Positions 12,627 to 32,000 of a stretch of DNA of 32,000 nt are shown piece after piece. The position numbers and the translations under genes were made by a program. Each line of letters opens with the position of its first letter. The first letter of the stretch is position 1. Where the stretch lies: the NCBI GenBank assembly GCA_022843095.1, contig JALHOH010000001.1, forward strand, positions 480,001 through 512,000, given 5' to 3'. This DNA is from Candidatus Saccharimonadota bacterium (GTDB lineage Bacteria; Patescibacteriota; Patescibacteriia; 2-12-FULL-60-25). The notes beneath the pieces were generated by a model. That model saw only the letters and a list, made by a program, of their open reading frames with translations, ran no database searches and was not told where the DNA came from.

Positions 12627-12794
12627 TTAGTGATCCCTCTTGTTCAACTGTTCTCGTAACGCATTGATATGTGCCGCATCGATATTCCCGCCCACCTGTT
12701 CAAGTGCCTGAAATTCTTCGTGTCGTATCGTGACCAGATCGTGCTTGAAACGCTTGTAGATATCGACCAATTTTTTTGCAACGTCGTCTGCCAT
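12627..12794 (-). CDS. Small hypothetical protein (55 aa), probably co-transcribed with the 417-aa gene
   Basis: Starts at the ATG at 12794 (MADDVAKKLVDIYKRFKHDLVTIRHEEFQALEQVGGNIDAAHINALREQLNKRDH). AAAGG lies 4 nt upstream. There is a 4-nt gap to the downstream gene. The longer 86-aa version would run into the miaB start region. Confidence 0.5.
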   Translation of the reverse strand: MADDVAKKLVDIYKRFKHDLVTIRHEEFQALEQVGGNIDAAHINALREQLNKRDH

Positions 12795-12803
12795 ATGCCT
12801 TTG

Positions 12804-12833
12804 AGTGTACCGCACGTCCGGATCCTTGTTCAA
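12804..12833 (-). promoter_or_regulatory. Candidate promoter for the minus-strand two-gene unit
   Basis: Read on the minus strand: TTGAAC (plus coordinates 12828-12833), 18-nt spacer, TACACT (12804-12809), then 9 nt containing AAAGG and the ATG. Confidence 0.45.
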
Positions 12834-12861
12834 TGGAGGGGAATTTGATACGTTCCGTCCC

Positions 12862-14208
12862 ATGCAACCGACGTATGCCATCACCACCTTCGGGTGTCAG
12901 ATGAATAAAAACGACAGTGAACGCATTGCCGGCATCCTGTCTGCGCTTGGCTTTGTTGAAACCACGGAGGAAGCGACGGCGGACGTGATTTTGGTGAATA
13001 CTTGCAGCGTCCGTCAGTCGGCAGAGGATCGCGTGTTTGGATCGCAAGAAAAATATCTTGAGTATAAGAAGAAAAAACCGAATCAGATCGTCGCGGTGAC
13101 GGGATGCATGGCCGGCCGCGATAAGAAGCGGGAGTTTTTGCGCCAAATGCCGGCAACAGACCTTTATTTTCCGACGCCAGACATGGTGCATTTGCCCCAA
13201 TGGATCGCGGAGCTTCGTCCAGACTTGGTCAACTCTGCGGACCTGGCCGAAGATTATCTCAAGATCCATCCACTCCGCGCACCGTCTGTGCAGGCGTATG
13301 TCACGATCCAAACGGGGTGCAATAAGTTTTGTACGTACTGCGTCGTGCCGTATGCGCGCGGATTGGAGCGGAATCGTCCGGTGGCGGATATCCTGCAGGA
13401 ATGCCGGGAGCTCGTGGCACATGGCGTGATCGAGCTGACGCTGCTTGGGCAGACGGTGAATTCGTATAAAGCGACTGATCCAGAATCGTTTGCACCGCAA
13501 AATCCGTTCAAAGACCATTTTGCGGCGTTGCTTTGGGAGATCAATCAATTGGAGGGGCTTGAACGTCTTCATTGGACGGCGGCACATCCGAATTCCATGA
13601 CCGACGAGGTGATTGCAGCGCTTGCGTTACCAAAGCAGGTGAACTACCTCCACTTGCCGGTGCAATCGGGGAATAACGAAGTGCTTCGTCGAATGAATCG
13701 CAAGTACACACGCGAGGAGTATCTGGAAAAGATTGCGCGGATCAAGGCGGCACGGCCGGGAATTGCGCTGGGTACGGATATTATCGTTGGGTTTCCGGGC
13801 GAAACGCGCGCGCAGTTTGAAGAGACCTGTTCGCTGTACCGCGAGGTTGGATTTGATGTTTCCTATAACGCCCAGTATTCCCCCCGTTCTGGAACGCTCG
13901 GTGTAAAATTGTATGCCGATGACGTCGAAAAAGAAGAAAAGCGTGATCGATGGAATGTGCTTCAGGGGGTGATGGAGGATCTCGCGCTCGCGAAGAATCA
14001 GGCGTTCATTGGAACGACGGTGCGTGTGTTGGTGGATAAAGTGACACAAGGGTTTGCGAGCGGAACGACGCACGAGATGAAGCTTGCGCGGTTTCCAGCA
14101 ACCGACACCTCGTGGATCGGGAAATGTGTCGACGTTTCGGTGACGGCTGCAAAGACGTGGGTGCTTGAATGTCAGCCGCCTGCCGCAAGCCATGTTGACG
14201 CAGCCTAG
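12862..14208 (+). CDS. miaB: tRNA methylthiotransferase MiaB-like (radical SAM)
   Basis: Starts MQPTYAITTFGCQMNKNDSE (UPF0004 N-terminal domain). It has the radical-SAM CNKFCTYCVVP motif and a C-terminal TRAM-like region. miaA lies immediately downstream. Confidence 0.85.
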   Translation: MQPTYAITTFGCQMNKNDSERIAGILSALGFVETTEEATADVILVNTCSVRQSAEDRVFGSQEKYLEYKKKKPNQIVAVTGCMAGRDKKREFLRQMPATDLYFPTPDMVHLPQWIAELRPDLVNSADLAEDYLKIHPLRAPSVQAYVTIQTGCNKFCTYCVVPYARGLERNRPVADILQECRELVAHGVIELTLLGQTVNSYKATDPESFAPQNPFKDHFAALLWEINQLEGLERLHWTAAHPNSMTDEVIAALALPKQVNYLHLPVQSGNNEVLRRMNRKYTREEYLEKIARIKAARPGIALGTDIIVGFPGETRAQFEETCSLYREVGFDVSYNAQYSPRSGTLGVKLYADDVEKEEKRDRWNVLQGVMEDLALAKNQAFIGTTVRVLVDKVTQGFASGTTHEMKLARFPATDTSWIGKCVDVSVTAAKTWVLECQPPAASHVDAA

Positions 14209-14223
14209 CCCCATCGCTACCAT
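14195..14223 (+). promoter_or_regulatory. Candidate promoter for miaA, -10 box 6 nt from the ATG
   Basis: TTGACG (14195-14200), 17-nt spacer, TACCAT (14218-14223), then TTTTTC and ATG 14230. The -35 lies inside the miaB 3' end. No SD is present. Confidence 0.45.
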
Positions 14224-16457: not shown

Positions 16458-17063
16458 ATGCCGCTTTCTTTTAAAGAGGTGGAGCAGGTGACGCAAACGC
16501 CGAATGCACGGGGAAAATTAATCGCATTCGTGTTTGAGTTAGTCCAGGTGCTCGCCATCTCGCTCGCCATCATTTTGCCGGTTCGGTATTTTTTGGTGCA
16601 GCCGTTTATCGTCAAAGGGGAGTCCATGGTGCCCAACTTTTACGATAAAGAGTACCTGATCATCGATGAGCTTTCCTACCGATTCCATCCGCCGGTTCGC
16701 GGAGAAATCGTGGTCTTTCGTTACCCCGAAGATCCCAGTCAGTCCTTCATTAAACGGGTCATTGGTTTGCCTGGGGAAACCGTGGAGGTCGCTTCCGGTC
16801 GGGTGAAGATCTACAACGATGAGCAGCCCAACGGATTTGTCTTGGACGAAGAATCCTATCTGGGTGAGCAGGCGACGATGGGGACGCGTACATTGACCTT
16901 GCAGGAGGATGAATACTTTGTCCTCGGAGATAATCGAGGAGGAAGCCTGGATTCTCGGTTTTTCGGTCCTGTGAAAAAGTCACTCATCATTGGTCGTGTT
17001 TGGGTTCGAGGGTTTCCGTTTGATCGCTGGAAGAAGTTTGAGCCGCCAACCTACTCCAATTAA
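16458..17063 (+). CDS. lepB: Signal peptidase I
   Basis: N-terminal TM segment, catalytic GESMVPN, IKRVIGLPGE, and the GDNRGGSLDSR box. Confidence 0.92.
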   Translation: MPLSFKEVEQVTQTPNARGKLIAFVFELVQVLAISLAIILPVRYFLVQPFIVKGESMVPNFYDKEYLIIDELSYRFHPPVRGEIVVFRYPEDPSQSFIKRVIGLPGETVEVASGRVKIYNDEQPNGFVLDEESYLGEQATMGTRTLTLQEDEYFVLGDNRGGSLDSRFFGPVKKSLIIGRVWVRGFPFDRWKKFEPPTYSN

Positions 17064-18542: not shown

Positions 18543-18571
18543 TTGACGAAGCGGAGGGGCTCCCGTATGAT
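18543..18571 (+). promoter_or_regulatory. Sigma70-type promoter for rpsU-yqeY (and possibly the downstream surface-protein operon)
   Basis: TTGACG (18543-18548), 17-nt spacer, TATGAT (18566-18571). Confidence 0.6.
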
Positions 18572-18631
18572 GCGTCGGACATCGTGTAAGCGATGATCCT
18601 ACACAGAAAGGAGTCGAATCCCTCAAATTCT

Positions 18632-18880
18632 ATGGTTGAAGCCAAACGGAAGAAGGGCGAAACATTTGATTCGCTCTATCGCCGGTTCCAGCGCCGCATG
18701 CAAGACAGCGGTCGCACGCCGGAAGTGAAGCGTCGCCGGTTCCTCAAGAAGGATCAGAACAAGAATCAGCGTCGGGACAGTGCCTTGCGCCGCGAAACCA
18801 AGCGCGCAGAGTACGCGTACCAGCTGAAGACCGGACAGGTAAAAGAAGAGTTCGGCCGGTCTCGTGCCCGCCGAACGTAA
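18632..18880 (+). CDS. rpsU: 30S ribosomal protein S21
   Basis: Starts MVEAKRKKGETFDSLYRRFQRRMQDSGRTPEVKRRRFLKK..., the S21 signature (..sfd.alrrFkr......g...e.rrr.f). It is highly basic. The start is chosen inside ORF 18593..18880. Confidence 0.85.
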   Translation: MVEAKRKKGETFDSLYRRFQRRMQDSGRTPEVKRRRFLKKDQNKNQRRDSALRRETKRAEYAYQLKTGQVKEEFGRSRARRT

Positions 18881-18892
18881 CGCGTGATCAGC

Positions 18893-19339
18893 ATGACCAT
18901 CCTTGAACGCGTGGATCAGGACTTTAAGGGGGCGATGAGAGCCAAGGACGACCTTGCGCTTTCCGTCCTCCGATTGCTCCGGACCGCGCTCAAAAACAAG
19001 CAGATCGAACTCATGCACGACCTTGCGGATACAGAAGCGCAAGCCGTGCTGAAGACGATGGTCAAGCAATATTCCGAGGCGCTCGCAGACTTTCGGTCTG
19101 CGGGTCGACTCGATCTCGCGGAGCGTCAGGCGCGTGAAATCGACCTGCTCTCGAAGTATTTGCCGCCATCGATGCCACCGGAAGAGCTTGAACGCCTTGT
19201 GCGGGAAGCTCTTGCGGAGCAAGCGGTGACCGACGTCGGTCGTGCCATGGGAATCGCTATGAAAGCGGTTCAGGGCAAGGCAGACGGTGCGGAAGTCCGG
19301 CGTGTTGTGGAAAAGCTTCTTGGAGGAAGCGGACAATAA
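18893..19339 (+). CDS. yqeY: GatB/YqeY domain protein
   Basis: Translation is MTILERVDQDFKGAMRAKDDLALSVLRLLRTALKNKQIE...LLSKYLP..M..EEL...V.... The rpsU-yqeY adjacency is as in Firmicutes. GTG 18884 is an alternative start. Confidence 0.8.
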   Translation: MTILERVDQDFKGAMRAKDDLALSVLRLLRTALKNKQIELMHDLADTEAQAVLKTMVKQYSEALADFRSAGRLDLAERQAREIDLLSKYLPPSMPPEELERLVREALAEQAVTDVGRAMGIAMKAVQGKADGAEVRRVVEKLLGGSGQ

Positions 19340-19366: not shown

Positions 19367-21274
19367 ATGCTTGAGAAAGGTTCCGTCATCGCAGCCGTGA
19401 GCCAGCGCATCCTTCGTTGGATGCTTTTGGCGATGGCTGCGTTTGCGTTTTGCGCCGTCCTGACGGATACGGCCTATGCCCAGGCTCTGACCGGGCAGCA
19501 AAACGTCGCGGAAATCGCCCAGGCCGCAGGGGTCGAGGCGAATGCGGATCTCCCGACCGTGATCGGCCGCATTATTTATATCTTTCTCGGGTTGCTTGGG
19601 GTCATTTTGTTGGGAATTTTGTTATACGCAGGCTATTTGTGGATGACGGCCGGAGGGAATGGCGACCAAATTGAAGATGCGAAAAAATACATCCGAAATG
19701 CCGTCATCGGATTGATCATTATCGCCTCGTCGTTTGCCATCACCTCGTTTATTTTGAGCATGCTCGCGGATGCCACGGGGGCGGGCGGAATCGGTGGAGC
19801 GGGAGGGGGCGCCTCCGGCGGAACCTTTCCGGGTCGCGCGGGTTCGCTTGGAGCCGGGGTCATTGAATCCCATGTGCCAGCGCCGAATGCCACCAATGTG
19901 GCACGCAATACCAGCATTATCGTGACGTTTAAGGTGCCGATGCAGGTGGACACCTTGATCCAAGGATGGACCGAGGCGACGTCGAACACCGCGAACGGAT
20001 TGAATGCAACGAACATCCGGATTTATCCGACCGGAGCGGCAGCGCAAGCGTTGCAGACCGCGCAGGTGCGCGTTCGCATGACGGAAGATCGTCGCACGTT
20101 CGTGTTTAAGCCCGTGGAACTGTTGGGTAGCGCTTCGCAGAACACGGATTATACGGTCGAGTTGTTGTCCGGGATTCGTCGGGCCGATGGACGCGCAGCC
20201 TTTACGGGCTCCTTTTCGAGCGGCTATCGATGGCAGTTTCAGGTCTCCACGGTCACGGATACGACGCCACCGAAGGTGGAATCTGTGGTCCCGGTGTCCG
20301 GACAGTATGCGCCCAACATTGTCGTTCAGGTGAACTTTAACGAGCCGGTTGATCCGACGAGTGCGAGCGGATTGTATCGACCGCCGGGTGCAAGTTTTCC
20401 GAACATCCAGGTTTCTTCGGTACCGATTTCAACGCCGGGTGCCGCGCCATCACGTCCCGCTGGAGAATTTAAGCTGTCGAACCAGTATCGCACCGTCGAA
20501 TTCGTGACCGAGTCGCCGTGCACCTCGCCCGTCAACTCCTGCGGTCAGCAAATCTTTTGCCTTCCATCGAATGCGTCGATTACGACCTTGCTTCGCGCTG
20601 CGACGCTGTCGACGAATCCGCCGGAAGCCGTGTTCACCGGTTCGGGGTACGATGGGATTGTGGACTTGGCCGGAAACTCATTGGATGGAAACGGAGACAA
20701 TGTCGCTCAGGGACAAGGGCGCGACGACCGTTCATTCACCTTTGGCACGTCGGATCGTCCAAACCTGGATGCGCCAAAAATCATCGGGACAACTCCGCAA
20801 GCGGGCGTTTCAGCGCAAACAAATAACGTGAGTCCAGATGTACGAATTTCTGCAACGTTTGATTCAATTCTGCGTTCGTCTACGGTGCATTCCGATTCGG
20901 TATATCTCACGCGTCAAAATGAGCGTTCTGGTGATGATTCGTTTTGGTGGTCCTCCAGCGTTGAAACGCTGAGCGCAGCACTTGGGGCACCGTCTGCTGC
21001 AAATCCGCCCGCGCGTGGCCGTCTTACGGTCAATCATCGCGTGTTTGAGCGATGGACGGATCCACGAGCACCTGCACCGATCTACGCGCCACACGTACTC
21101 TCTTCAGTCCAGAATATTTACCAGAACTGTTTTGTACCAGCAGGCGCTGTTGATCTTGCTGATCCGAATAATCCGGCAAATCCGTTGAATTGTTCCGCAA
21201 ATAGCACCAATCCGAATTGTTGTGATAACCGCGCGCAAGGGGCGAGCTGTCCTTTCCGCGCTCCCGCTCCATGA
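19367..21274 (+). CDS. Surface protein: signal peptide, TrbC/VirB2-like pilin hairpin, Gly-rich linker, then SbsA-type Ig-like (Big_5-like) modules
   Basis: Signal peptide ...AFCAVLTDTAYA-Q. TM1 is IIYIFLGLLGVILLGILLYAGY, the loop is LWMTAGGNGDQIEDAKKYIRNA, and TM2 is VIGLIIIASSFAITSFILSML. A GAGGIGGAGGGASGG linker follows. Repeated P..A.NV..N..I.V.F..P(M/V)-type modules follow. Its stop overlaps the next ATG (ATGA at 21271-21274). Confidence 0.8.
   Translation: MLEKGSVIAAVSQRILRWMLLAMAAFAFCAVLTDTAYAQALTGQQNVAEIAQAAGVEANADLPTVIGRIIYIFLGLLGVILLGILLYAGYLWMTAGGNGDQIEDAKKYIRNAVIGLIIIASSFAITSFILSMLADATGAGGIGGAGGGASGGTFPGRAGSLGAGVIESHVPAPNATNVARNTSIIVTFKVPMQVDTLIQGWTEATSNTANGLNATNIRIYPTGAAAQALQTAQVRVRMTEDRRTFVFKPVELLGSASQNTDYTVELLSGIRRADGRAAFTGSFSSGYRWQFQVSTVTDTTPPKVESVVPVSGQYAPNIVVQVNFNEPVDPTSASGLYRPPGASFPNIQVSSVPISTPGAAPSRPAGEFKLSNQYRTVEFVTESPCTSPVNSCGQQIFCLPSNASITTLLRAATLSTNPPEAVFTGSGYDGIVDLAGNSLDGNGDNVAQGQGRDDRSFTFGTSDRPNLDAPKIIGTTPQAGVSAQTNNVSPDVRISATFDSILRSSTVHSDSVYLTRQNERSGDDSFWWSSSVETLSAALGAPSAANPPARGRLTVNHRVFERWTDPRAPAPIYAPHVLSSVQNIYQNCFVPAGAVDLADPNNPANPLNCSANSTNPNCCDNRAQGASCPFRAPAP
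19547..19768 (+). other. TrbC/VirB2-like two-helix pilin-type domain (copy 1)
   Basis: Two hydrophobic helices flank the LWMTAGGN loop. By eye it is roughly 55-60% identical in protein to 21418..21639. Confidence 0.65.
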
Positions 21275-24200
21275 CGCCCTTCTTTCGTCGCGCCCTTGTT
21301 GCGCTTGTCCCGCTGCTCGTAGGAGCCGTGTCTCTTGCGATCGCCCCAATCGTGTTTGCTCAAGGGGTTGATCCTGGACTGCAGGAGGTTGGATCGGTTG
21401 TGCAGCTTTCCGCGGCAGACCCGCGCGTGATTGCGGCGCGTATCATTAATGTCGTGCTTGGATTGCTTGGTATCATCATGGTTTCACTCATGGTGTATGC
21501 CGGCTTTTTGTGGATGACGGCCGGTGGAAATGCGGATCAGTTAGAACGAGCGAAGAACATCATCCGCAACGCCATCATTGGGTTGATCATCGTGATGATG
21601 AGCTGGGCGATCGCGACGTACGTGATTCGAGCGATTTTTGGCGCAACCGAAGGAACGGGGGGAACATCCGGCACGGGTCCGGGCGGTGGTCCTGGTGGTG
21701 GCCTTGGCGGGAGTGGGGCGGGGAGTGGGTTCCAGATTCAGTCGCTTTCACCGACAGGTACGACAACGATTCGCAATATCGAGGTGCGGTTTTTGTTTAA
21801 CCGTCCCGTTGCGCAACCAACCGCCGCTGCCGCGTTGACCGTTGTTCGACTCCGCGACAATGCGCCGGTCGCAGGAACGTTATCGGTTTCCGGTCAGCTT
21901 GCCACGTTTGTTCCGACAGCCGCCTGTCCGGCGCCTCAGGCAGATCGCAAGTGTTTTGACGCCGGCGAGGTGTTTGAGATTCGTGTCGCGAATACGCTTC
22001 GTTCCGAAGATGGTCGGTCGATTTCGTGCACGCCATTTACTCCGCCGTGCCGCGTGCGTTTTGAAACGGGGACGGTGGTGGACACGACTCCGCCACAGGT
22101 CAACGTGACGTCGCCAGCAGCAGGGCAGAGCGTAAATGCGAGTTCCGTGGTCCGGATCGTTGCGGAGGCGACGGATGATGCGGGTGTGAGTCTCGTGGAA
22201 GGATTTGTTGATAACGTTTCCATTGGACGCTCTGCACCAAGCGGAGCAACGCCTCGTACGTTTCAAGGGGTGATGCAGTGGGATCCGACGGGTGCGACCA
22301 TTGGAACACATGCTGTCCGCGCGTCGGCGAATGACGTGGATTCCAACGTTGGACAAAGTGCTCCTGTGTCATTCGCGTTACGCTACGGTCATTGCTTTAA
22401 TGCCGTCCGTGATAGCGATGAAACGGGGATTGATTGTGGAGGATCCAGGTGTGGCGCCTGTTCTGGCGGGACCTGTTCATCCGGAGCAGATTGCCGAAGT
22501 GGTGTCTGTCAGGCGGGCCGATGTGTTGAACAGCCGGTGGTCACCAATCTTTCTCCGCGTGATGGACGACCGGGGACGTTCGTAACGATTTCCGGGTATA
22601 ACTTTGGGACCTCTGGAGAAGTGCGTTTTTGGAACGGTTCTGCGTTTGCGGTGGTGGCGCTTCCTCCTGCCCAGTGCGGAGCTGCGGGAACATGGACCGG
22701 ATCACAGGTGTTGGTTGCTGTTCCTGTCACAGCACAGAGCGGTCCGATTCAGCTGACCAATGGTCAGACGTCATTGCGTGATGCGACAAACGACGCAAAT
22801 GGACCACGCCTTTCGGATTTTACGGTAAACACGGTGACGCGGCCGGGAATTTGTGCCATTACGCCCACCTCTGGTGCGGCGGATACGGAGGTGCGTGTAT
22901 CCGGTGCCGGATTTGGCGGGACGCGTGGCGCAACGGATCGGTTGGTTTTTGGAGAGACCGAACCTTCTTCCTACGTCGGTTGGACGGATACTGAAATCCG
23001 TGGGAATGCCCCGCGCGTTTCTCCGGGATCCTATCCAGTTTCGGTAAAAACGGCGACAACCGAATCGAATGCAGTGAACTTTGATTTGATCGTCCCGGCT
23101 CGAACGGAACCGACCATTGAAACCGTGGATCCGGTTGCAGGTCCGATTGGAACGTATGTGACCTTGTCTGGTCGCAACTTTGGATCACGTGTCGGCGTGG
23201 TGCGTTTTCAGAACATCGCAACGGGGGATGTCGGGACAGCGGATGTGACGTTTCCAGCACAGTGCAGCACTAATTGGTGGCGTGATACGGTCGTGACGGT
23301 AAAGGTTCCGGCGACACTTGGAGCTGGAGCGCTTGGTCGTCCGGTTGGGGTGGGGAATTATCGCATTACACTCGAACGTGACGGGGTGTCGAGTAACGCC
23401 GTTGGGTTTGAGGTGCGCACCGGTACTGCGGCTCCTGGAATTTGTGCGATCGAGCCAATCGCAGGGCCGGTGGGTGTAACGACAACGGCATATGGCGAGC
23501 GTTTTGGAGGCTCGGCGGGACAGGTGACGTTTCAAGGAGCTGGTACCCGTGTCACGGCAAGCGACGTCGCGGAGTGGCAGTCGAATCGCTTTGATGTTCG
23601 TGTCCCGAACGGCAGTCGTACGGGGGCAGTCAAGGTGCGTGTCGGAGGTCAGGACTCCAACGGGGTCGCCTTTACCGTCGCAAATTGTCAAGAAAATCCG
23701 ACCGCGATCTGTGGCGCGGGGCGCGAATGTTGTGCAAACGGGGTATGTGCCGCTGCGGGAACACGTTGTTCTGCCGGTCCGCAATCCGCGATGTATGCCT
23801 GGCGCGTTTCGACAGGGGTGATCCCGGTCAATCCGCGCGTGGTCGAACAGTGTGAAACGACCGGCGCCACACCACTTCCGCCATCACCGGCTCCATGGGA
23901 TGCGCGAACCGATGGACAGAACGTGTGTCTGAATGCGGCGGTGACGTTGCGATTTAACGTGAACATCGTCCCAGGTTCGCTCACGAACAACGTGATCGTG
24001 CGCAAGTGTACGGGAACGGGGGCGAATCCTTGCACCGCGGCAACCAACGTCGCGGGATCGCTCACGTTGCGTAGCGCGGGAACGCCGGGTGAATATGTCT
24101 ATTTTGTCCCGACTGCGCCACTTGAGGCGAATGCGACCTACGAAGTGCAGGTGCGTCAGCAGATTCAGGCCTTGGGAACGAATTTGCAGATGGAACCACA

Positions 24201-27200
24201 GCCTTCGTGTGGGACGGGGTTTGGATATTGCTATCGCTTCCGCACCGGTGGGCCGGGCGCAACGTGCCAAATCCAGCGGGTAAGCGTGACGCCTCCGGCA
24301 CCGCGTTTGACAGAACCGGGCGCAACGCAAGACATGGATGCACTTCCCATGACCAATGGATGTGTAGCGTTGAGCAATGCAATCAACTGGCGGTGGTATG
24401 CCGGACGAAGCGCTGCGCCAGCGGATCAGGATTCGCGCGCCACGGTGACGAATACGGTTCTGCCGTCCGGAAATGTCGCATCCACCCAGCGGGCGACGGC
24501 GGTTGCGGAAACGGGGGCAACGCCCGTGCAGCTGAGTGCGGAGACCGTGATTCCGGGACAATCGCCAGTTCGCGGGTATGCGAATTTGTACATCAACTTT
24601 GTTCCGCCACGCATCGTTACGTTTGGACCGTCCTGTCAGGAGGCGTGTGGGAATGCGGCGATTTACGCCACGTTTAACGTCCCGATGGATCCGGCGCGAC
24701 TGAGCGCCAATCGGGTGTTCCTGCGGAAGTGTACGAATGAAAACTGTGACGCTTATGAACCTTCGACGCCGATCACGTTGTGCGATAGTGGCGTGACGTA
24801 TCAAGATGTCCGTTCCGGGGATCGGACGATCACGAATGGGTTGTTGAATATTGAACCACGAGATCCAGCACGCGGGTGCGCGCCGATCACGCTTGAAGCG
24901 GGCCGGTATTATCGCGTCACCGTCAGAAATGGCACGGATGGCGTATTTGCTCGCAATGGATTGCCGCTCTCGGTAAGCGAAACGCCCGCGAATGCAAGCG
25001 CGGAAGGGTTTACTTGGACATTCCGTGTGAAGACGACCGGTGGTGGACGTTGTGTGCCATCGCGTGTCGATGTGGTGCCGGGAGAAAAAATTGAGTCGTT
25101 GGTGGGCGCGCGTCAGTCGTTCCAGGCGACTCCAGTGAGTGCGCCGGACACCTGTAATGCCGCAGGTCAGCGCTTGGTGGTCGACCAGTCATTTAGCTGG
25201 AACGTTCAGGATGGTTTGGTGGCTCGGCTGTTGAACGGGCGTGGGGGCGCAACGGTTGATACGACGAATGTGTTGCCGGCGAATTGTTCCTCGCAGTGTT
25301 TGTTGACCGGCGCAAATGGCGCACTTGGTCGTGTGGCGAATTGCGGGAACAGCGCGATCGAGACAACGGACGGTCAGTATTGCCGGAATGGAGCGGTGGC
25401 GTGTGCTCCGGGTGCCGCGGGGTGTCGTACGATTCACGGAGACCCGTGTGTGGTGCTTGCTCCTGGTTCGCGTGGCGGTGAGCAGTGTGATTTGGGGGCG
25501 GCGAACGGTGCGCCGGGGTCTTTGTGCAGTGCGCAGTGTACGTGGACGGGGGCAACCGGCGCAGCCTGTGGTAACGGCCTCGTGGATCGCGGTGAACAAT
25601 GTGATGCGCAGCGGTTGACCTGTGCCGGAGGGGTGAATGCAGGGGCAACCTGTGTGCGTGATGCGGATTGTGGGGTTGGAGGCACGTGTACCAACCGTGT
25701 GCCACGTCCGGGATGTTCTTCGCAGTGTGTCGCGCAGGGCTCCATCGCGGGTGGTTCGGTGTGTGGCGAAGGGTCCATCGGTTTTGGAGAAACCTGTGAT
25801 GATGGGAACACGTCTTCTGGCGACGGTTGCAGCAGCATGTGTCTGCATGAAGGTTCTGTGCGTGTTTCCGCGATTTGTGGAAACGGCGTGCGCGAGCCGG
25901 GAGAAGCGTGTGAAGTTGGGGCGGGTGGTGTGTGGCCGGCACGATGCGATCGAACGACCTGCTTGAATCAGGGGACGGATCGTTGTGCGCCAGCGGCTCC
26001 GGGAGCCCCTGTTCCGGCAAATTGCTGTGGGAACAATGTGCGTGACGCGGGGGAAGATTGTGACGATAACTCCGGCGGATGTTCTGAGCGGTGTTTGTTG
26101 AAAGGATCTTCGGCGTCCTACGCAGCGCCTTCGTTCTGTGGGGATGGCTTGCCACTTGGAACGGGAGAACAGTGCGAAGCGACGACGCTTGGCGATGGGT
26201 TGGTTGATAGTCGTCAGCTTGCGGAGATCGTGGGACGTGGGACGGTGGGAGCAAATAACATCATGAGCACGCAGATCCGCACGACCTATGAAACGGTGAA
26301 CGGGTCGGCGGTGTACGGGGTTGCCTGCGGAAAAACGCGCGAACGGGAAGATTGTAATGCCGGGGCGCCGTATGTGAATGGGTTGACGGATCAAGGATGT
26401 TGTATGCGTCGGCCGGTGGTGACCGAAACGCGCAACCCGCAACGCAACGAAACAAATGTCTGTCGCAACGCGCAAATCATGTTTGACTTTGATCAGCCGA
26501 TGCGTGCCGAAACATTGCGTCAAAACATCGTGTTAGCCGAAGAAATCGCAGGCGCCAACTGTCCTGCCGGGACGACGAATGTGACGGGGGTTCAGGCGGC
26601 TGATCGCGGTGTGCGCGGCTGGATGGCGTTCCAGTGGAATCGGTTGGTGAGCTGGATGTTTGGAACAGAGGCGACGGCGGCGTTCTGTGTGGGTGGTGTG
26701 CAAGCGTCTGTTGCAAGCGAAGATGTTGTGGTGGCGCTTGGAGGCGGGGTCACGGCCACGCGCACGCGAGCATATTTGACCATACAAAATGCATTAAAGC
26801 CGAATGCGCGTTATCAAATCGTGGTGAAGGGCGATCCGGATTTGGCGGATGCGGTGAAGCGCGGTGTTCGGAGTCGCGATGGCGTGGTGATGGGTCAGGA
26901 TGATGTTTGGACGTTTACGACCGGGAATCAGGTGTGTGCGGCAAGTCAGTTAAACGTGCAAGACACGTTCCGCGCCGCTCCGAATTTGTTCAAGTCCCGG
27001 AATGAATCCCACGCGTATCAGGCAACGATTGTGTCGCAACAAGGCACGCGCTTGGTTCCGATTGTGCCGGTGCGTGAATACGCCTGGACCTGGCTTCCGT
27101 GGAGTTCGAGCCGCCGGGATGTGGCGACAGCAGGTGCGGGGACGTTGATTGACGAACAATTGCGACAAAGCACAACTACGGTGCAATCCGTCAACAAGAA

Positions 27201-30200
27201 CGGCAGCGCGTTAATTGGTGCGGGGATCCGCGTGTCCACCGACACGGTGTTTACCCCGTCCACGGTTGGTCGCACGATCACGGGGAGTCAGTTGGCAACG
27301 GTTTTGCTGTGTGAACGCCCTTGGCCGTTTGCAACGGGTGAATATGCCGGGACCACGCGCTTTGAAGATCGTCGAGGTTCAGCGGTGTTGCGTGGGACGG
27401 CGTTTGAGGCCGGTCCGTATTTCAACTTCGCCACCTTGTACTGCATGGACGGTGCCTCCGCGCAATCGACGATGGACGATCTTCCGGCGATGAGCGTGCG
27501 TCCGGTGCCGTTGAACGATGTGGATCGTGCCAAGGGGATTCGTCGGCAGTATTTCTTCACGTACGAAACGGCGGGAACGGAAGCCTTGCAGCGTGATGGG
27601 ATTGGGATTCGTGTGATCGAAAATCCACTCCATTATTCGCCGCTTGAATGGTATCGCGCCCAAGGATTTACGGGGCAGCCGAAGGCGGTCACGGTGGATG
27701 GATATGAAGCGGTGCAGGATGGCACGACCTATTACGTTGCCGCAGTGAACACGGATGATGATCCATTTGCGGGCAATGTCAGTACGACGATTTATGTGTT
27801 GTCGTACAACGATGGGGCGCAGGAAACGACGCGCGGTATCTTCCAGCAGTTGGTGGATAACTGGACGTTCAACGTGAACCTGACCCGTGGGATGGAAGGA
27901 ACCTGTGTCGCGGCGGATGGTCAGCCCATGACACGGAATGGACAGGTGGTGCCCTGTGTAGCGGATTGGGAATGTGCCAAATCCGGTGTCGTCGCAACGT
28001 GTGCCAACCTAAAGCCGAAGTTGCAGCGTGATATTGTGCGCATCTCCGACTTCCAGAAGATGAACTTGCGTTTGGCAACGGCATTTTCTGGGGGAGGTCA
28101 GTATCCGAACATGTCTGCGGGGACGTTTGTTCCAGGGATGACGACCAGTAAGTGGCCGAGCTGGGAAGGGACGCTTGGTACGGCGCTCGGCGGTTCGTTA
28201 CCTGTCGATCCGGTGAACCGTTTGATCACCTGTGGCCGGTGTAAAGATGGGTCCGGACGTCTTGGCGATATCTGTCAGGATTCGTCGGAATGTGCAACGG
28301 GTTCGACCTGTGTGAATGAAACCGGGAATGTTCCAGCGAGCGGATTTGATCCACAAACCTGCTGGAATGCGCAGGCGCAGCAGGCGATGTGTCCAACGCT
28401 TGAAAGCGCGTTAGGGGCGGGAGGGATGTCACGTGTTCCGTCTCGGTTCTACCAGTACCGCGCATTGGATGGAGGCGTGCGATACGAGCTGGCAACGGAA
28501 TTGGAAGGGCCGGGTGCCGATCGATATGATCCGCCGCTCATCCGTGAAGTGAAAGCGTGTGTGGGAAGCAGCCGGTTGTGTGTGACGGATGCAGATTGTG
28601 TGACGTACGCCGCGGATGGTCGCACAGTGCTGCGTCGGACGACGTGTGCTGGTACGGGAGGACGCTGGGTCTACAACAACATGTGTACCGGTCAGCGGTT
28701 CGGCAATGACAATGTGTGTGGAAACCGGGTGATCGGGGCGGGCGAGGTTTGCGAAGTGGGAGATTTGCGCGCCACCGCGTGTACATTGCCGGACGGACGC
28801 GCCGGTCAAAAAGTGCAGCAATGCGTGGAATGCCGTGGATTCTCGGATGCGCCAAGTACGATTTGTGTCCCGGTCTCGAGCTGTGGAAACGGGATCGTGG
28901 AACGGCGGAAGTGCTTTGGCGGAAATGGATTCAAATACGGGCAGACCTGTTCTGCGGATACGGACTGTCGCGATGCGCGCGATCCGGCAGGGACGGTCAT
29001 GACCTGTCAGGATGTCCCATCGCCGGAGGTGTGTGATGATGGGGCGTTGAATGGCACGTATGGACGCTGTAACCGCACCTGTTCCGGACTTGGCGCAAGC
29101 TGTGGAGATGGGCAGATTTCCGGGGGAGAATCCTGTGATAATGGGGCGTCGAACGGGGCATACTGCGACACGCGGACTCCGGGAGATGGGGGCGCTGGAT
29201 GCAATCTTGCAAGCTCCTGTGGATTGGATTGCCGAAGTCAGGGGCCGAGCTGTGGGAACGGCACGGTCGATGGTCCGGAGCAGTGTGATGGCGGGACTCA
29301 ATCAACCGAAAAGGCGCTGTGTGCGGGGGGTGTGAACGATAACCAGCCGTGTGGTCAGGCAAGTGATTGTCCGGGTGGAACCTGCGGTGGTGTTGCGGGA
29401 CGTGAAGCATGTACTTCTGTCCGTCGGTGTACCAATGATCCAGCGCGTTCCTGTGCAGCGGATGCAGATTGCGGAACGGGAATTTGTGCCACCTACCCCG
29501 CGGCACATAACCGCACCTGTGGCGCACCGCGCACGGCGAATGCCTGTCGGTATGGTGCGTGGAGCGGATGTGAGCCGGTTGGGGGAGCACGTTGTGGAGA
29601 TGGACGGGTGGATGCGGGAGAAGAGTGTGATGATGGAAACACGAATAATGGGGATGCCTGTACCGCGAGCTGTCGCCGAAACATTTGTGGAGACGGCATC
29701 GTGAATGCGGGGATCGAAGAATGTGATCGCGGATCGGAAAATGGGGGAAGCTGTTCGTCCGAATATGGCGTAAGTTGTCTGGCCTGTTCGCGTGACTGCC
29801 GTAACATCGCCCAATCCGGAGGATATTGCGGAGACGGTACGCGCAACGGGGCAGAGCAATGTGACCGCAGCGACATCCCGTCCGGTGTCAGCTGTCGCTC
29901 GCTCGGATACGATTTTGCGCAGCAGGTGCAGTGTCGCTACACCCAATACGCCACGGATGCGGCGGGGAATGTGGTCTGTACATCCGATGAGGCAACGATC
30001 GGATTCAAGTGCTTGCGCTGTTCACAAGGGGGTGTCGAGGGCGTTGCGCAGGATTTTGGTCGATGTGATACGGCGTCCTGTGCCCGTGGGGGGTGTCGCT
30101 ACTATCCAGGAAGTGGCGTGGGAGGTCGCGGGGATGTGGTCGCGACGCTTGATTCTCGATTCAAGGCCGCCTGTCTGGCTGCAAGTCCGCCGCAAGAAAT

Positions 30201-31257
30201 CCTGAGCTGTGGAAATACCTGTGGCTTAGGTGGATGTGGTCGGTGCTCGGATACACTTCCGGCCGGTCAGGGTGCGACGGTTCAAGGGCAGGTATTCGAC
30301 GCGGTGTACTCCTTCGTTCCGGTGCCAAACGCGCGTGTCACCTTGTATGCGCAAGGGGTACGCGTGACAGAAACCTTTACGGATGAAGACGGGAGATTCC
30401 GAGTGACGGGGCTTCATCCGCGCACAGAATGCGGAGGCTATCGCATCGTCGTTGACTCCTATCGGGATAACCCGTGCACGGCCCTTTCTCCGACGGCGGC
30501 ACGTCCGGCGTGTGGTGGAAGTCCGCGGGTGGGGAACGGGGTGAATGAGGCTACGAATGGCGGATATTGGCCGTTCGAATCACGCCTGTTCAGTGCCACG
30601 AACTTTGCAACGGCTGTCCGAAATAGTGAAGGGAAGATCTTCTTGATCCCACGCGTTGGGCAGAATGAAACCTTGGCAGTGGCTAACTGGAATGGATCGT
30701 TACCGGGGAGCCGATACTTGGACGCGCACCTGAAATTGCCTCAAGGGTATTTGAACGGACTCGGACCGAACATTTACTGGGGCGCGCCGGGAAATGTGAA
30801 TGTGACGGGGACGAATCCGCACGCGTATCTGTACTGTTTCCACTCGGAGAATCCGGCGGATACGAGTTGTGGGAGCTTCCAGAATGGTCCGCAGTCCATC
30901 AAGTATCGTCGTGGAACCTGGGCGCGCAGCGGGCATTACGCCTACGGCTTGAACGACTGGGGGAAGCAAGGTATGAGCGCTGCGGTACAGTACATGTCCC
31001 GAACCATTCCGGACGTGATCGCCCGCATCGTGACCCAAGATCAATACTTTGAGGTCATTCCGCCGTCGACGCCACCTTCTTGTGGATCAGCTGGATCGCT
31101 CTGGCTCGTCATGGCACAAAATGCGGCCAGTGGTCAGGTGACGATCTTCAATCAAACTGGGGCAACAGGAGAATCGGTCGGGGGTCGGTTCGTGTGTAAT
31201 GGGGAGACCATCCCGGAACTTGGTGGAACCGTTTCCGCTTCGTTCCATGGTCTGTAG
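21271..31257 (+). CDS. Giant (3328 aa) multidomain surface protein with a TrbC/VirB2-like pilin hairpin at the N-terminus
   Basis: Uninterrupted 9987-nt ORF. The signal peptide ends ...IAPIVFA-QG. The hairpin is VLGLLGIIMVSLMVYAGFLWMTAGGNADQLERAKNIIRNAIIGLIIVMMSWAIATYVI, followed by a Gly-rich linker. Next come Ig-like modules, 4 IPT/TIG domains, 2 Cys-rich repeat arrays and a CarboxypepD_reg-like module. No C-terminal sorting signal was recognised. Confidence 0.9.
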   Translation: MTPFFRRALVALVPLLVGAVSLAIAPIVFAQGVDPGLQEVGSVVQLSAADPRVIAARIINVVLGLLGIIMVSLMVYAGFLWMTAGGNADQLERAKNIIRNAIIGLIIVMMSWAIATYVIRAIFGATEGTGGTSGTGPGGGPGGGLGGSGAGSGFQIQSLSPTGTTTIRNIEVRFLFNRPVAQPTAAAALTVVRLRDNAPVAGTLSVSGQLATFVPTAACPAPQADRKCFDAGEVFEIRVANTLRSEDGRSISCTPFTPPCRVRFETGTVVDTTPPQVNVTSPAAGQSVNASSVVRIVAEATDDAGVSLVEGFVDNVSIGRSAPSGATPRTFQGVMQWDPTGATIGTHAVRASANDVDSNVGQSAPVSFALRYGHCFNAVRDSDETGIDCGGSRCGACSGGTCSSGADCRSGVCQAGRCVEQPVVTNLSPRDGRPGTFVTISGYNFGTSGEVRFWNGSAFAVVALPPAQCGAAGTWTGSQVLVAVPVTAQSGPIQLTNGQTSLRDATNDANGPRLSDFTVNTVTRPGICAITPTSGAADTEVRVSGAGFGGTRGATDRLVFGETEPSSYVGWTDTEIRGNAPRVSPGSYPVSVKTATTESNAVNFDLIVPARTEPTIETVDPVAGPIGTYVTLSGRNFGSRVGVVRFQNIATGDVGTADVTFPAQCSTNWWRDTVVTVKVPATLGAGALGRPVGVGNYRITLERDGVSSNAVGFEVRTGTAAPGICAIEPIAGPVGVTTTAYGERFGGSAGQVTFQGAGTRVTASDVAEWQSNRFDVRVPNGSRTGAVKVRVGGQDSNGVAFTVANCQENPTAICGAGRECCANGVCAAAGTRCSAGPQSAMYAWRVSTGVIPVNPRVVEQCETTGATPLPPSPAPWDARTDGQNVCLNAAVTLRFNVNIVPGSLTNNVIVRKCTGTGANPCTAATNVAGSLTLRSAGTPGEYVYFVPTAPLEANATYEVQVRQQIQALGTNLQMEPQPSCGTGFGYCYRFRTGGPGATCQIQRVSVTPPAPRLTEPGATQDMDALPMTNGCVALSNAINWRWYAGRSAAPADQDSRATVTNTVLPSGNVASTQRATAVAETGATPVQLSAETVIPGQSPVRGYANLYINFVPPRIVTFGPSCQEACGNAAIYATFNVPMDPARLSANRVFLRKCTNENCDAYEPSTPITLCDSGVTYQDVRSGDRTITNGLLNIEPRDPARGCAPITLEAGRYYRVTVRNGTDGVFARNGLPLSVSETPANASAEGFTWTFRVKTTGGGRCVPSRVDVVPGEKIESLVGARQSFQATPVSAPDTCNAAGQRLVVDQSFSWNVQDGLVARLLNGRGGATVDTTNVLPANCSSQCLLTGANGALGRVANCGNSAIETTDGQYCRNGAVACAPGAAGCRTIHGDPCVVLAPGSRGGEQCDLGAANGAPGSLCSAQCTWTGATGAACGNGLVDRGEQCDAQRLTCAGGVNAGATCVRDADCGVGGTCTNRVPRPGCSSQCVAQGSIAGGSVCGEGSIGFGETCDDGNTSSGDGCSSMCLHEGSVRVSAICGNGVREPGEACEVGAGGVWPARCDRTTCLNQGTDRCAPAAPGAPVPANCCGNNVRDAGEDCDDNSGGCSERCLLKGSSASYAAPSFCGDGLPLGTGEQCEATTLGDGLVDSRQLAEIVGRGTVGANNIMSTQIRTTYETVNGSAVYGVACGKTREREDCNAGAPYVNGLTDQGCCMRRPVVTETRNPQRNETNVCRNAQIMFDFDQPMRAETLRQNIVLAEEIAGANCPAGTTNVTGVQAADRGVRGWMAFQWNRLVSWMFGTEATAAFCVGGVQASVASEDVVVALGGGVTATRTRAYLTIQNALKPNARYQIVVKGDPDLADAVKRGVRSRDGVVMGQDDVWTFTTGNQVCAASQLNVQDTFRAAPNLFKSRNESHAYQATIVSQQGTRLVPIVPVREYAWTWLPWSSSRRDVATAGAGTLIDEQLRQSTTTVQSVNKNGSALIGAGIRVSTDTVFTPSTVGRTITGSQLATVLLCERPWPFATGEYAGTTRFEDRRGSAVLRGTAFEAGPYFNFATLYCMDGASAQSTMDDLPAMSVRPVPLNDVDRAKGIRRQYFFTYETAGTEALQRDGIGIRVIENPLHYSPLEWYRAQGFTGQPKAVTVDGYEAVQDGTTYYVAAVNTDDDPFAGNVSTTIYVLSYNDGAQETTRGIFQQLVDNWTFNVNLTRGMEGTCVAADGQPMTRNGQVVPCVADWECAKSGVVATCANLKPKLQRDIVRISDFQKMNLRLATAFSGGGQYPNMSAGTFVPGMTTSKWPSWEGTLGTALGGSLPVDPVNRLITCGRCKDGSGRLGDICQDSSECATGSTCVNETGNVPASGFDPQTCWNAQAQQAMCPTLESALGAGGMSRVPSRFYQYRALDGGVRYELATELEGPGADRYDPPLIREVKACVGSSRLCVTDADCVTYAADGRTVLRRTTCAGTGGRWVYNNMCTGQRFGNDNVCGNRVIGAGEVCEVGDLRATACTLPDGRAGQKVQQCVECRGFSDAPSTICVPVSSCGNGIVERRKCFGGNGFKYGQTCSADTDCRDARDPAGTVMTCQDVPSPEVCDDGALNGTYGRCNRTCSGLGASCGDGQISGGESCDNGASNGAYCDTRTPGDGGAGCNLASSCGLDCRSQGPSCGNGTVDGPEQCDGGTQSTEKALCAGGVNDNQPCGQASDCPGGTCGGVAGREACTSVRRCTNDPARSCAADADCGTGICATYPAAHNRTCGAPRTANACRYGAWSGCEPVGGARCGDGRVDAGEECDDGNTNNGDACTASCRRNICGDGIVNAGIEECDRGSENGGSCSSEYGVSCLACSRDCRNIAQSGGYCGDGTRNGAEQCDRSDIPSGVSCRSLGYDFAQQVQCRYTQYATDAAGNVVCTSDEATIGFKCLRCSQGGVEGVAQDFGRCDTASCARGGCRYYPGSGVGGRGDVVATLDSRFKAACLAASPPQEILSCGNTCGLGGCGRCSDTLPAGQGATVQGQVFDAVYSFVPVPNARVTLYAQGVRVTETFTDEDGRFRVTGLHPRTECGGYRIVVDSYRDNPCTALSPTAARPACGGSPRVGNGVNEATNGGYWPFESRLFSATNFATAVRNSEGKIFLIPRVGQNETLAVANWNGSLPGSRYLDAHLKLPQGYLNGLGPNIYWGAPGNVNVTGTNPHAYLYCFHSENPADTSCGSFQNGPQSIKYRRGTWARSGHYAYGLNDWGKQGMSAAVQYMSRTIPDVIARIVTQDQYFEVIPPSTPPSCGSAGSLWLVMAQNAASGQVTIFNQTGATGESVGGRFVCNGETIPELGGTVSASFHGL
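21418..21639 (+). other. TrbC/VirB2-like two-helix pilin-type domain (copy 2)
   Basis: Same layout as 19547..19768. The loop-encoding DNA is nearly identical (ttgtggatgacggccgg.gg.aat at 21508-21531 versus 19637-19660). Confidence 0.65.
22534..23679 (+). other. Four tandem IPT/TIG-like domains within the giant protein
   Basis: The units begin PVVTNLSPRDGRPGTFVTISGYNFG, PGICAITPTSGAADTEVRVSGAGFG, PTIETVDPVAGPIGTYVTLSGRNFG and PGICAIEPIAGPVGVTTTAYGERFG. This is the classic P.I..i.P..Gp..Ggt.vtI.G.nF pattern. Confidence 0.75.
25342..26180 (+). other. Cysteine-rich repeat array 1 (CGNG..GE.CD type, Myxococcus cysteine-rich repeat / DUF4215-like)
   Basis: Units include CGNGLVDRGEQCD, CGEGSIGFGETCDDGNTSSGDGCSSMC, CGNGVREPGEACE, CGNNVRDAGEDCDDNSGGCSERC and CGDGLPLGTGEQCE. 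Confidence 0.7.
28717..29870 (+). other. Cysteine-rich repeat array 2 (same repeat type)
   Basis: Units include CGNRVIGAGEVCE, CGDGQISGGESCDNGASNG, CGNGTVDGPEQCDGG, CGDGRVDAGEECDDGNTNNGDACTASC, CGDGIVNAGIEECDRGSENG and CGDGTRNGAEQCD. Confidence 0.7.
30277..30460 (+). other. Carboxypeptidase-regulatory-like (beta-sandwich) module
   Basis: Sequence TVQGQVFDAVYSFVPVPNARVTLYAQGVRVTETFTDEDGRFRVTGLHP...YRIVVDS fits the G.V.D....P...A.V.l......t.TdadG.F.l..L..G.Y pattern. Confidence 0.55.
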
Positions 31258-31260
31258 TCT

Positions 31261-32000
31261 ATGTCACGTCGTGTCTTGCTCATCGTGGTTACAAGTGCCG
31301 TCGCCCTCGTTCTCGTGGGCGGCGGCATTTGGCTGCTTCGGAATCGATCGATAAATGGGGTTCAGGAGACGCCAATTGCCACAGAGTCTTCGCCGGAACC
31401 AACGCCTGAGGTAAATGGGTCCACGGTGCCGCCACCGGTGTACGCCACCAATACGTCGATTGCGCCAAAAACGCTTCCGGATGGAACGCGTATTGCAGGG
31501 CGAGAGGTGGTTGCGCGTGATCAGGATGGAGACGGGTTGTCCGATGCAGATGAGGCGGCGATCGGTACGGACGCACAAAAAGAAGACACGGATGGTGATC
31601 GTTTATCCGACCATGCGGAGGTGTTTGTGTATCGGACCGATCCGTTTGCTGTGGATGCGTTGGATGGTGAGGGAAAGCCGGTACGCATCGAGTATTGGTC
31701 TACGACGACCCGGAGCGGGGTGACCGCACCATCAGCGTCGATGTCTACCTCGACGAATGCGCCAATCGCCCCGGTTGAGGAAGATCGAGATCGCGACGGA
31801 TTGTCTGCGACTCAGGAGGTGCAACTCGGAACGGATGATCAAAAAGCGGATACGGATGGGGATGGATTATCGGATCGGGAAGAGGCGCAGGTGTATCGGA
31901 CCGATCCAACAAAGGCGGATTCTGATGAGGATTCCTTCCTGGATGCACAAGAAATCCAATCAGGGTATAATCCTCTAGGATCAGGTCGTTGCATCCGTCC
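31261..32000 (+). CDS. Membrane-anchored protein with thrombospondin-type-3-like Ca-binding repeats (3' end beyond the window; not in the supplied ORF track)
   Basis: My own translation of frame 1 from ATG 31261, 4 nt after the giant gene's stop, finds no stop codon up to base 32000. It begins MSRRVLLIVVTSAVALVLVGGGIWLL (TM segment). Repeats then follow: DQDGDGLSDADE, DTDGDRLSDHAEVFVYRTDP, DRDRDGLSATQE, DTDGDGLSDREEAQVYRTDP and DSDEDSFLDAQEIQSGYNPLG. Confidence 0.75.
   Translation, partial: MSRRVLLIVVTSAVALVLVGGGIWLLRNRSINGVQETPIATESSPEPTPEVNGSTVPPPVYATNTSIAPKTLPDGTRIAGREVVARDQDGDGLSDADEAAIGTDAQKEDTDGDRLSDHAEVFVYRTDPFAVDALDGEGKPVRIEYWSTTTRSGVTAPSASMSTSTNAPIAPVEEDRDRDGLSATQEVQLGTDDQKADTDGDGLSDREEAQVYRTDPTKADSDEDSFLDAQEIQSGYNPLGSGRCIR

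Follow-up and report, generated by a model that had tools for sequence, protein, structure and literature searches.

The 32,000-nucleotide stretch analysed here (hereafter the window; from an uncultivated, ultra-small bacterium of the Patescibacteria, contig JALHOH010000001.1 of assembly GCA_022843095.1, positions 480,001 to 512,000) ends with three consecutive plus-strand genes. The first (gene 1) and the second (gene 2, the giant) encode proteins that begin with a signal peptide and a two-helix hairpin related to the VirB2-like pilins of Patescibacteria and continue into large ectodomains, and the third (gene 3) leaves the window. With a probability of roughly 0.55, we read genes 1 and 2 as a conserved pair of cell-surface fibril proteins that stand on a pilin-like hairpin serving for anchoring and pairing, and that form a core feature of the envelope. 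The pair itself is real and reproducible and not a product of chance, as it has full-length, collinear orthologues in 80 loci. The fusion is visible to automatic annotation, orthologues of gene 1 carrying the database labels 'pilin', 'Ig-like domain-containing protein' or 'hypothetical'; in the full-text literature on PF18895 (T4SS_pilin, where T4SS stands for type IV secretion system) which comprised one survey of these pilins (PMC12102498) and one preprint on structure clustering, we found no published description of a fusion between this hairpin and a giant protein. A sequence-only reading of the window had proposed both an anatomy for these proteins and a function as an attachment apparatus; the anatomy was right, and the function is still conjecture.

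The N-terminal hairpin and its family

When the N-termini were scanned alone, both exceeded the curated gathering score of 26.6 bits for PF18895, with 37.7 bits for gene 1 (residues 62-129) and 36.4 bits for gene 2; in the full-length proteins the scores were 34.0 and 30.5 bits, respectively. The two hairpin regions are 45% identical to each other (E 4e-28) and have in common the loop LWMTAGGN..AK..IRNA; the signal peptide, hairpin and loop described from the sequence are borne out in both proteins. In the AlphaFold2 model of gene 1 (a single chain built from 66 homologues, with a mean predicted local distance difference test score, pLDDT, of 81.3), a leader helix is followed by a helix-loop-helix comprising residues 62-94 and 99-137, at a pLDDT of about 88-92. 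On profile and predicted fold, we assign the hairpin to the Patescibacteria VirB2-like pilin family PF18895.

The sequence-only reading had gone further and named the TrbC/VirB2 type itself, subject to a profile search. The pilin-type assignment stood, through PF18895, and the more specific one did not: for PF04956 (TrbC/VirB2), gene 1 reaches 20.7 bits (E 4.7e-4), below the cut-off of 27.9, gene 2 gives no match, and a profile of 28 hairpins run against the sequences in the PDB returned nothing below E 0.3 and no solved pilin. A further model, NF045849 (Mbov_0395, a pilin-like protein of a Mycoplasma integrative and conjugative element), matches the two proteins with 34.2 and 24.7 bits, under its 40-bit cut-off, with an E value of 1.5e-8.

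Cleavage of both leaders is predicted at AxA↓Q, an invariant leader end in both proteins, and A38 and Q39 are invariant in an alignment of 66 gene 1 orthologues. The features of type IV prepilins, a class III signal peptide and one N-terminal hydrophobic alpha-1 helix, were not found in either protein; both have Sec-type AxA↓Q leaders and two helices instead. Besides the leader, these two helices are the only hydrophobic segments in the two proteins. In a set of 148 hairpins, taken from the window and from related loci, lysines plus arginines number on average 3.41 in the loop, 0.81 before helix 1 and 0.24 after helix 2, a charge bias that predicts a cytoplasmic loop with both ends of the hairpin outside (N-out/C-out). 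This bias and the cysteine content of the ectodomains (8 in gene 1 and 164 in the giant) together place the large domains of both proteins outside the cell, as had been proposed, where their cysteines presumably form disulfides.

The hairpins of the pair have a mean column identity of 57% and are thus far more conserved than the pilins within Patescibacteria arrays, which comprise 2-11 genes and whose members share about 25% identity (Quinonero-Coronel et al. 2025, PMC12102498). Such conservation fits a buried, partner-binding module rather than an exposed shaft subunit. The same survey reports VirB2-like pilins (PF04956 and PF18895) in 1,948 Patescibacteria assemblies, near virB4 in 1,135 of them, and makes no mention of fusions to large ectodomains. 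Patescibacteria are unique among monoderms in having VirB2-like pilins, and an array of them is essential in a cultured Saccharibacterium, Southlakia epibionticum (PMC12857230, a 2025 review).

A phmmer search of the full library with the giant's hairpin yielded 29,343 clusters (at 50% identity) with E <= 1e-3, of which 6,913 had E <= 1e-10. Among the best 150 clusters, 16 represent single-hairpin proteins of at most 200 amino acids (aa), 9 are single-hairpin proteins of 201-400 aa, and 72 exceed 400 aa, with the hairpin N-terminal in all 72. Nearly all of these long single-hairpin proteins (69 of 72) are orthologous to one or other gene of the pair, and the remaining three partly resemble gene 2. 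In this part of the family, the fusion is thus essentially confined to these two genes and is not a broad habit, and the suggestion that the hairpin is a common N-terminal module in proteins of the candidate phyla radiation was too sweeping. Several of the short proteins are complete pilins of 128-145 aa that are 48-54% identical to the giant's hairpin, share with it the motif YAG(F/Y)xWMTAGGN..KAK, and sit in tandem arrays.

The remaining 53 of the best 150 clusters are polypeptides with 2 to 10 or more hairpins in tandem. These 'polypilins', which reach 1775 aa (P0279), are not discussed in the literature that we consulted on the family. Among relatives found through the hairpin search (L085, 5145-14393, and L086), one array of 16 consecutive PF18895 genes lies 3' of a gene for a solute-binding protein, with no VirB4 within 10 kb; one member of the array (P0209, 427 aa) has four hairpins in one polypeptide.

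The gene pair, its ectodomains and its neighbourhood

Scanning one genome per species, we found 295 relatives of gene 1 and analysed the best 80 loci; as the best identity to gene 1 among these is 53-55%, the window's own species is not included. The loci come from Candidatus Uhrbacteria, Magasanikbacteria, Falkowbacteria, Komeilibacteria and other Patescibacteria metagenome-assembled genomes. Essentially all 80 have the order lepB-hisS-rpsU-yqeY-gene 1-gene 2, followed by gene 3 where the sequence reaches. In relatives with shorter giants, the genes downstream encode a small TSP3-type protein and one or two unassigned membrane proteins, followed by ybeY or dagK, ftsA and ftsZ. Gene order in these loci indicates that the pair and its neighbourhood of housekeeping and division genes are conserved across a class.

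Orthologues of the giant are collinear and range from 1553 to 3577 aa. Up to residue 2850, collinearity is seen over nearly the whole length in 56-80 of the 80 loci, and the drop toward the C-terminus arises because the fetched loci end at 10 kb. When the 81 sources (the 80 loci and the window) were searched with a hidden Markov model of the hairpin, 62 had two hairpin-containing open reading frames (ORFs) and 13 had three, so that 75 of the 81 sources with a hairpin ORF keep the pair; no genuine free short pilin ORF was found with this model within 10 kb in the loci of the 80 relatives. In 63 loci, a median of 91 nucleotides separates the gene 1 stop codon from the start of the gene 2 hairpin, and in 60 of these the distance is between 75 and 139 nucleotides; since the median approximates the length of a leader, the tight junction between the two genes is itself conserved. 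In the window, the gene 1 stop overlaps the gene 2 start as ATGA (21271-21274), and the giant's stop codon, TAG at 31255-31257, is followed by the gene 3 ATG at 31261, confirming the coupled layout of the three ORFs that had been read from the sequence. One relative (L057, 9917-19216) has three consecutive hairpin-fusion genes (538, 1664 and 900 aa), followed by the same small membrane proteins.

The claim that the window lacks T4SS machinery also held: family scans gave no match to VirB4, VirB6 or VirD4 in any window ORF scanned, and there is no free pilin gene in the window. In the sampled flanks of relatives no T4SS gene was seen, the identified ORFs being housekeeping genes.

The gene 1 ectodomain, modelled as a chain of beta domains with a pLDDT mostly above 90, matches Big_5 in three stretches (E 1.1e-16), and each of its cysteines is invariant among orthologues. 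Gene 1 has 503 homologues, the best 120 of which are all 590-685 aa long and nearly all combine PF18895 with Big_5. A Foldseek search of the PDB with the whole gene 1 model, in which Ig-chain matches swamped the hairpin, gave the S-layer protein SbsC as the top match (4uic, E 4e-9, TM-score 0.14-0.15), followed by L,D-transpeptidase Ig-like domains, cadherins and titin, all with low TM-scores; because of these low scores, we regard the matches as those of generic tandem Ig chains. The ectodomains of genes 1 and 2 have only a weak Big_5 similarity to each other (E 5e-6).

In the giant, the hairpin is followed by Big_5, Big_7, four IPT/TIG domains, Big_5, Cys-rich acidic repeats (TIGR02232/DUF4215) and Big_5. 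A central region without assignment, another Cys-rich region, a CarboxypepD_reg-like sandwich and a C-terminus that is also unassigned complete the protein. The Ig-like, IPT/TIG and Cys-rich domains announced for the ectodomains are indeed there. Among PDB sequences, the TIG part gives a TIG-type match to domain D of cyclodextrin glycosyltransferase. The first Cys-rich region scores 20.0 bits for DUF4215, under the cut-off of 27, and many DUF4215 proteins are among its homologues. PF13620 (CarboxypepD_reg) exceeds its cut-off of 32.3 bits, with 34.0 bits, only in a scan of the C-terminal piece by itself, and residues 3064-3328 have no family match. Over 41 complete orthologues, the hairpin (residues 41-120) is the best-conserved block of the giant, with an identity of 0.51-0.54, and the C-terminal part is the least conserved; unrelated DUF4215 repeat proteins dominated a homologue search made with the C-terminal third. 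A Cys-rich knot (GHCFNAVRDSDETGIDCGGSRCGACSGGTCSS...CQAGRC; residues ~361-440, window 22351-22590) that has no family assignment is second only to the hairpin in identity (0.48-0.49).

The central region (residues 2075-2535), part of which also occurs in other architectures together with He_PIG, Big_7, CBM or Sushi domains, was modelled within residues 1990-2570 from a 17-row alignment, as a mixed alpha/beta fold predicted with confidence. It gave no Foldseek match in the PDB below E 0.01, no PDB profile match, and no Pfam match in 28 orthologous segments. A type IV pilin head considered at residues ~2250-2420 (KLQRD..R..D...YP...LP.DP.N...Y.Y...Y.L..LE) was unsupported, Foldseek, Pfam (28 orthologues) and the PDB profile search all being negative.

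The part of gene 3 within the window matches TSP3_bac, the bacterial thrombospondin type 3 repeats that bind calcium, with 69.9 bits against a cut-off of 25, and its one N-terminal hydrophobic segment (residues 1-27) is a predicted membrane anchor, in keeping with its description as a membrane-anchored, calcium-binding repeat protein. A TSP3 gene lies 3' of the giant in relatives as well. The features of the three genes and of the named genes upstream are collected in Table 1.

Table 1. Coordinates, in window positions, of the gene pair, its predicted parts and neighbouring genes (AF2, AlphaFold2; pTM, predicted TM-score; TM hairpin, transmembrane hairpin)
Feature	Position	Strand	Basis or remark
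lepB (signal peptidase I)	16458..17063	+	Peptidase_S26 E 1.7e-42; four genes upstream of gene 1
rpsU-like gene	18593-18880	+	Pfam; directly 5' of yqeY
yqeY	18884-19339	+	Pfam; directly 5' of gene 1
Gene 1	19367..21274	+	635 aa; modular VirB2-like pilin; ORF list
Gene 1 predicted signal peptide, Sec-type, residues 1-38, ending AYA↓Q	19367..19480	+	hydrophobic segment 14-38
Gene 1 predicted two-helix TM hairpin, residues 62-137, loop WMTAGGN..AKKYIRNA	19550..19777	+	PF18895 and AF2
Gene 1 Gly-rich flexible linker, residues 138-159	19778..19843	+	pLDDT below 50; Gly-rich consensus kept among orthologues
Gene 1 ectodomain, tandem Ig-like (Big_5) beta domains and Cys-rich C-terminal region	19844..21271	+	Pfam, AF2
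Gene 2 (giant)	21271..31257	+	3328 aa; giant modular VirB2-like pilin; ORF list
Gene 2 predicted signal peptide, residues 1-30, ending VFA↓Q	21271..21360	+	hydrophobic segment 4-34
Gene 2 PF18895 hairpin, residues 54-118	21430..21624	+	Pfam profile
Gene 2 membrane-proximal Ig-like block, residues 154-971 (Big_5, Big_7, Cys-rich knot, four IPT/TIG, Big_5)	21730..24183	+	Pfam
Gene 2 first Cys-rich acidic repeat region, residues ~1380-1640	25408..26190	+	TIGR02232 48 bits, cut-off 20.8
Gene 2 central alpha/beta region, residues ~2075-2535	27493..28875	+	AF2 pLDDT 74.4, pTM 0.72
Gene 2 second Cys-rich repeat region, residues ~2560-2990	28948..30240	+	DUF4215 27.8 bits, cut-off 27; BLAST repeats
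Gene 2 distal end, CarboxypepD_reg-like beta sandwich (3003-3061) and 267-aa C-terminal region	30277..31254	+	PF13620
Gene 3, partial, leaves the window	31261..32000	+	246 aa visible

Only 27 nucleotides separate the yqeY stop codon from the gene 1 ATG, and because of this short gap the rpsU-like gene and yqeY may share a transcript with gene 1. A promoter-like site at 18543-18571 is a consensus match only, and the promoter and terminator scan of the window was uninformative, with counts at the level of shuffled sequence. Signal peptidase I, encoded by lepB, is the enzyme class expected to cut AxA↓Q leaders, and a functional link between lepB and the pair is conceivable. The lepB position is kept in most of the 80 loci; its slot four genes 5' of the pair could be functional or could merely reflect a conserved housekeeping order.

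Farther upstream in the window, three minus-strand ORFs of 417, 295 and 198 aa (11369-14223) have no family assignment. The 417-aa ORF has a weak HopA1-like match (E 0.0023), under the cut-off, and the 295- and 198-aa ORFs are kept beside miaA in several relatives. Three paralogous lipoprotein-like ORFs on the plus strand (438-1577, 2330-3181 and 3266-4183) each have a leader ending near a cysteine, an acidic Asp/Pro-rich spacer and a common C-terminal domain of ~125 aa (APIVVEYAHVDPRYPGRDVPSFADYWWRVEY...), and none has a Pfam match. Bases 1147-1446 and 2751-3050 of this region are 100% identical, and bases 3753-4052 are 77% identical to them. RNA genes, considered for the unannotated first 4.4 kb, were rejected, Rfam and tRNA searches having given no match there.

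Interpretations of the pair

In the arrangement that we favour, each protein would be exported via the Sec pathway and its leader cut at AxA↓Q, probably by signal peptidase I. The PF18895 hairpin would stay in the cytoplasmic membrane, with its basic loop in the cytoplasm and its ends pointing outward, as the charge counts support, and a Gly-rich tether would join it to a rod of Ig-like, TIG and disulfide-rich domains that reaches through and beyond the wall. The hairpin would serve mainly as a conserved anchor and as a module through which the two proteins pair or oligomerise, a role that we infer because it is far better conserved than the exposed array pilins and because the genes always occur together. 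The small TSP3 calcium-binding membrane protein of gene 3 is a likely partner, and the whole would be a core envelope feature of Uhrbacteria/Magasanikbacteria/Falkowbacteria-type Patescibacteria. A conserved base with a variable distal end would suit a structure that touches a partner cell or surface, or one that builds up an outer layer. The fibrous surface proposed for the giant membrane proteins of another CPR bacterium (PMC8080830) is in line with this arrangement. As regards attachment, the function originally proposed, strict conservation beside ftsA and ftsZ speaks for a core part of the envelope no less than for an accessory adhesin.

Several points weigh against this arrangement. For every member of the pair it relies on sequences and predictions; the central domain and the C-terminal region of the giant have no detectable relatives, and no ligand or binding domain was identified in the proteins. 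Furthermore, other ABY1 genomes list VirB4, TrsD and VirB3, and ABY1 T4SS loci adjoin comF, recG and radA (PMC12102498 and its supplementary tables), so a T4SS may lie elsewhere in the source genome, beyond the window. The conservation of the hairpin, together with its 48-54% identity to array pilins, could equally fit handling by such a system.

These last points are the substance of a reading in which genes 1 and 2 would encode genuine minor pilins, belonging to a pilus that depends on a T4SS: a machine of the VirB4 type, encoded elsewhere, would extract their hairpins from the membrane and build them into a VirB2-like filament of mostly short pilins, and the Ig-like ectodomains would be displayed as adhesins at the tip, at the base or sparsely along the shaft, as for PilB and PilC in Streptococcus sanguinis. 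The shared motif and close relation to bona fide short pilins in tandem arrays argue for it, as do the common occurrence of VirB4, TrsD and VirB3 in ABY1 genomes, the essential role of VirB2-like pilin arrays in the cultured Saccharibacterium (PMC12857230), and the principle of the modular pilin, which is established for type IV pili (PMC8179133). However, neither the window nor the 10 kb around the loci of 80 relatives contains a free pilin gene, no T4SS gene is found in the window, and the hairpins are far more conserved than those of array pilins. An appendage of 3,200 residues per subunit would probably be sterically hard to accommodate in a helical shaft except at its end, and no Patescibacteria VirB2-like pilus has been directly seen yet. 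We regard this reading as possible, with the odds clearly against it. A different emphasis makes the pair the main surface-layer or envelope scaffold, with a function in cell shape or division and not in contact with a host, with gene 1 as the membrane-anchored stalk, gene 2 as the canopy or spacer, and gene 3 providing calcium-dependent cross-links. In its favour, the locus occurs throughout the clade with the same gene order and, in relatives, directly 5' of ftsA-ftsZ, the ectodomains keep their conservation from end to end, which typical variable adhesins do not, and SbsC is the best structural match of gene 1; calcium-binding repeats, moreover, are frequent in surface-layer assembly. Yet the SbsC match, at TM-scores of 0.14-0.15, is one of generic tandem Ig domains, the proteins contain no Pfam or NCBIfam match to a surface-layer homology (SLH) domain or a known S-layer family, the position beside ftsA may simply mirror a compact genome, and the distal end of the giant is variable. 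We consider a scaffold of this kind unlikely.

It is very improbable, in our judgement, that the hairpin is a generic two-pass anchor that resembles pilins by hydrophobic composition, which would leave the T4SS_pilin label biologically empty. The subthreshold TrbC/VirB2 score and the lack of a solved pilin among the matches of the sequence profile would agree with this, and members of PF18895 have never been shown to form pili; but both proteins score ~10 bits over the PF18895 cut-off, the polar loop motif, and not the hydrophobic helices alone, is conserved and shared with free pilins at ~50% identity, and NF045849, a second independent model, matches as well (E 1.5e-8).

More speculatively, and with only slight confidence, we suggest that the VirB2-type hairpins of genes 1 and 2 might co-assemble, with or without a T4SS ATPase, as the polymerising base of a chromosomally encoded, clade-core surface organelle, a membrane-rooted stalk or short filament with giant Ig-like and Cys-rich arms. 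If so, these proteins would be the first 'modular T4SS pilins' and candidates for the envelope fibres or pili-like structures on ultra-small groundwater bacteria, and the adjacent ftsA and ftsZ would hint at a possible link to cell division.

The fibril pair matters apart from this suggestion. Patescibacteria account for much of bacterial diversity and are believed to live attached to other cells, and in most of their classes no gene has been linked to a surface structure. It is their VirB2-like pilins that separate the T4SS of Patescibacteria from the T4SS of other monoderms, and in the single species tested these pilins are essential; the present locus shows this pilin module joined to giant ectodomains as well, in a strictly conserved gene pair of a whole class. 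The locus thus offers specific proteins as candidates for the envelope fibres of Uhrbacteria-type cells that have not been cultivated, and it raises the question of whether T4SS-type pilins, like type IV pilins, exist in modular, adhesin-bearing forms.

Comparison with known systems

Among S-layer proteins, SbsC resembles gene 1 as its best, though generic, Foldseek match, and the archaeal SlaA/SlaB stalk-plus-canopy likewise combines a smaller, anchored component with a far larger one; the present proteins, however, use neither SLH domains nor a C-terminal helix as their anchor but an N-terminal hairpin. The CPR predator Vampirococcus lugosii has giant membrane proteins of 1,392-4,163 aa, for which a fibrous surface and host attachment have been proposed (PMC8080830). 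They share with the giant described here its size, its membrane localisation and the presence of interaction domains; they differ in that no pilin-type anchor was reported, in their lineage (Absconditabacterales) and in their domain sets. The Pam pili of Saccharimonadia (bioRxiv 10.64898/2026.03.03.709456), which we also considered, are an unrelated system.

In design, the two proteins resemble PilB and PilC of Streptococcus sanguinis, type IV pilins of modular build with adhesive parts (PMC8179133). As in genes 1 and 2, an N-terminal pilin module is fused to C-terminal modules, which in PilB and PilC are adhesive. The likeness is one of analogy only, as the type IV pilins belong to an unrelated filament superfamily; the present proteins have a Sec leader instead of a prepilin leader and a hairpin instead of the single alpha-1 helix.

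In the conjugative pilins of the TrbC/VirB2/TraA type (PF04956), the leader, hairpin and topology are well established, and genes 1 and 2 appear to follow the same plan: a long leader cut by signal peptidase I, a membrane hairpin with a basic cytoplasmic loop, and both ends outside. They depart from it in scoring below the Pfam cut-off and matching no solved pilin, in belonging to a monoderm host, in not lying on a conjugative element, and in their huge C-terminal fusions.

With the PF18895 pilins, finally, genes 1 and 2 have in common the signal peptide and two-helix hairpin, the loop motif, a score above the cut-off and ~50% identity to free members. The described pilins of this family are ~110-170 aa long, occur in arrays of 2-11 and are often near virB4, whereas genes 1 and 2 carry an additional 480 or 3,200 extracellular residues and far more conserved hairpins, and stand among housekeeping genes, neither the window nor the examined flanks containing a T4SS gene. 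Because they match the family in profile and fold but lack its small size, array arrangement and T4SS linkage, and because they fall below the TrbC/VirB2 thresholds, genes 1 and 2 are a variant of the Patescibacteria VirB2-like pilin kind rather than ordinary pilins.

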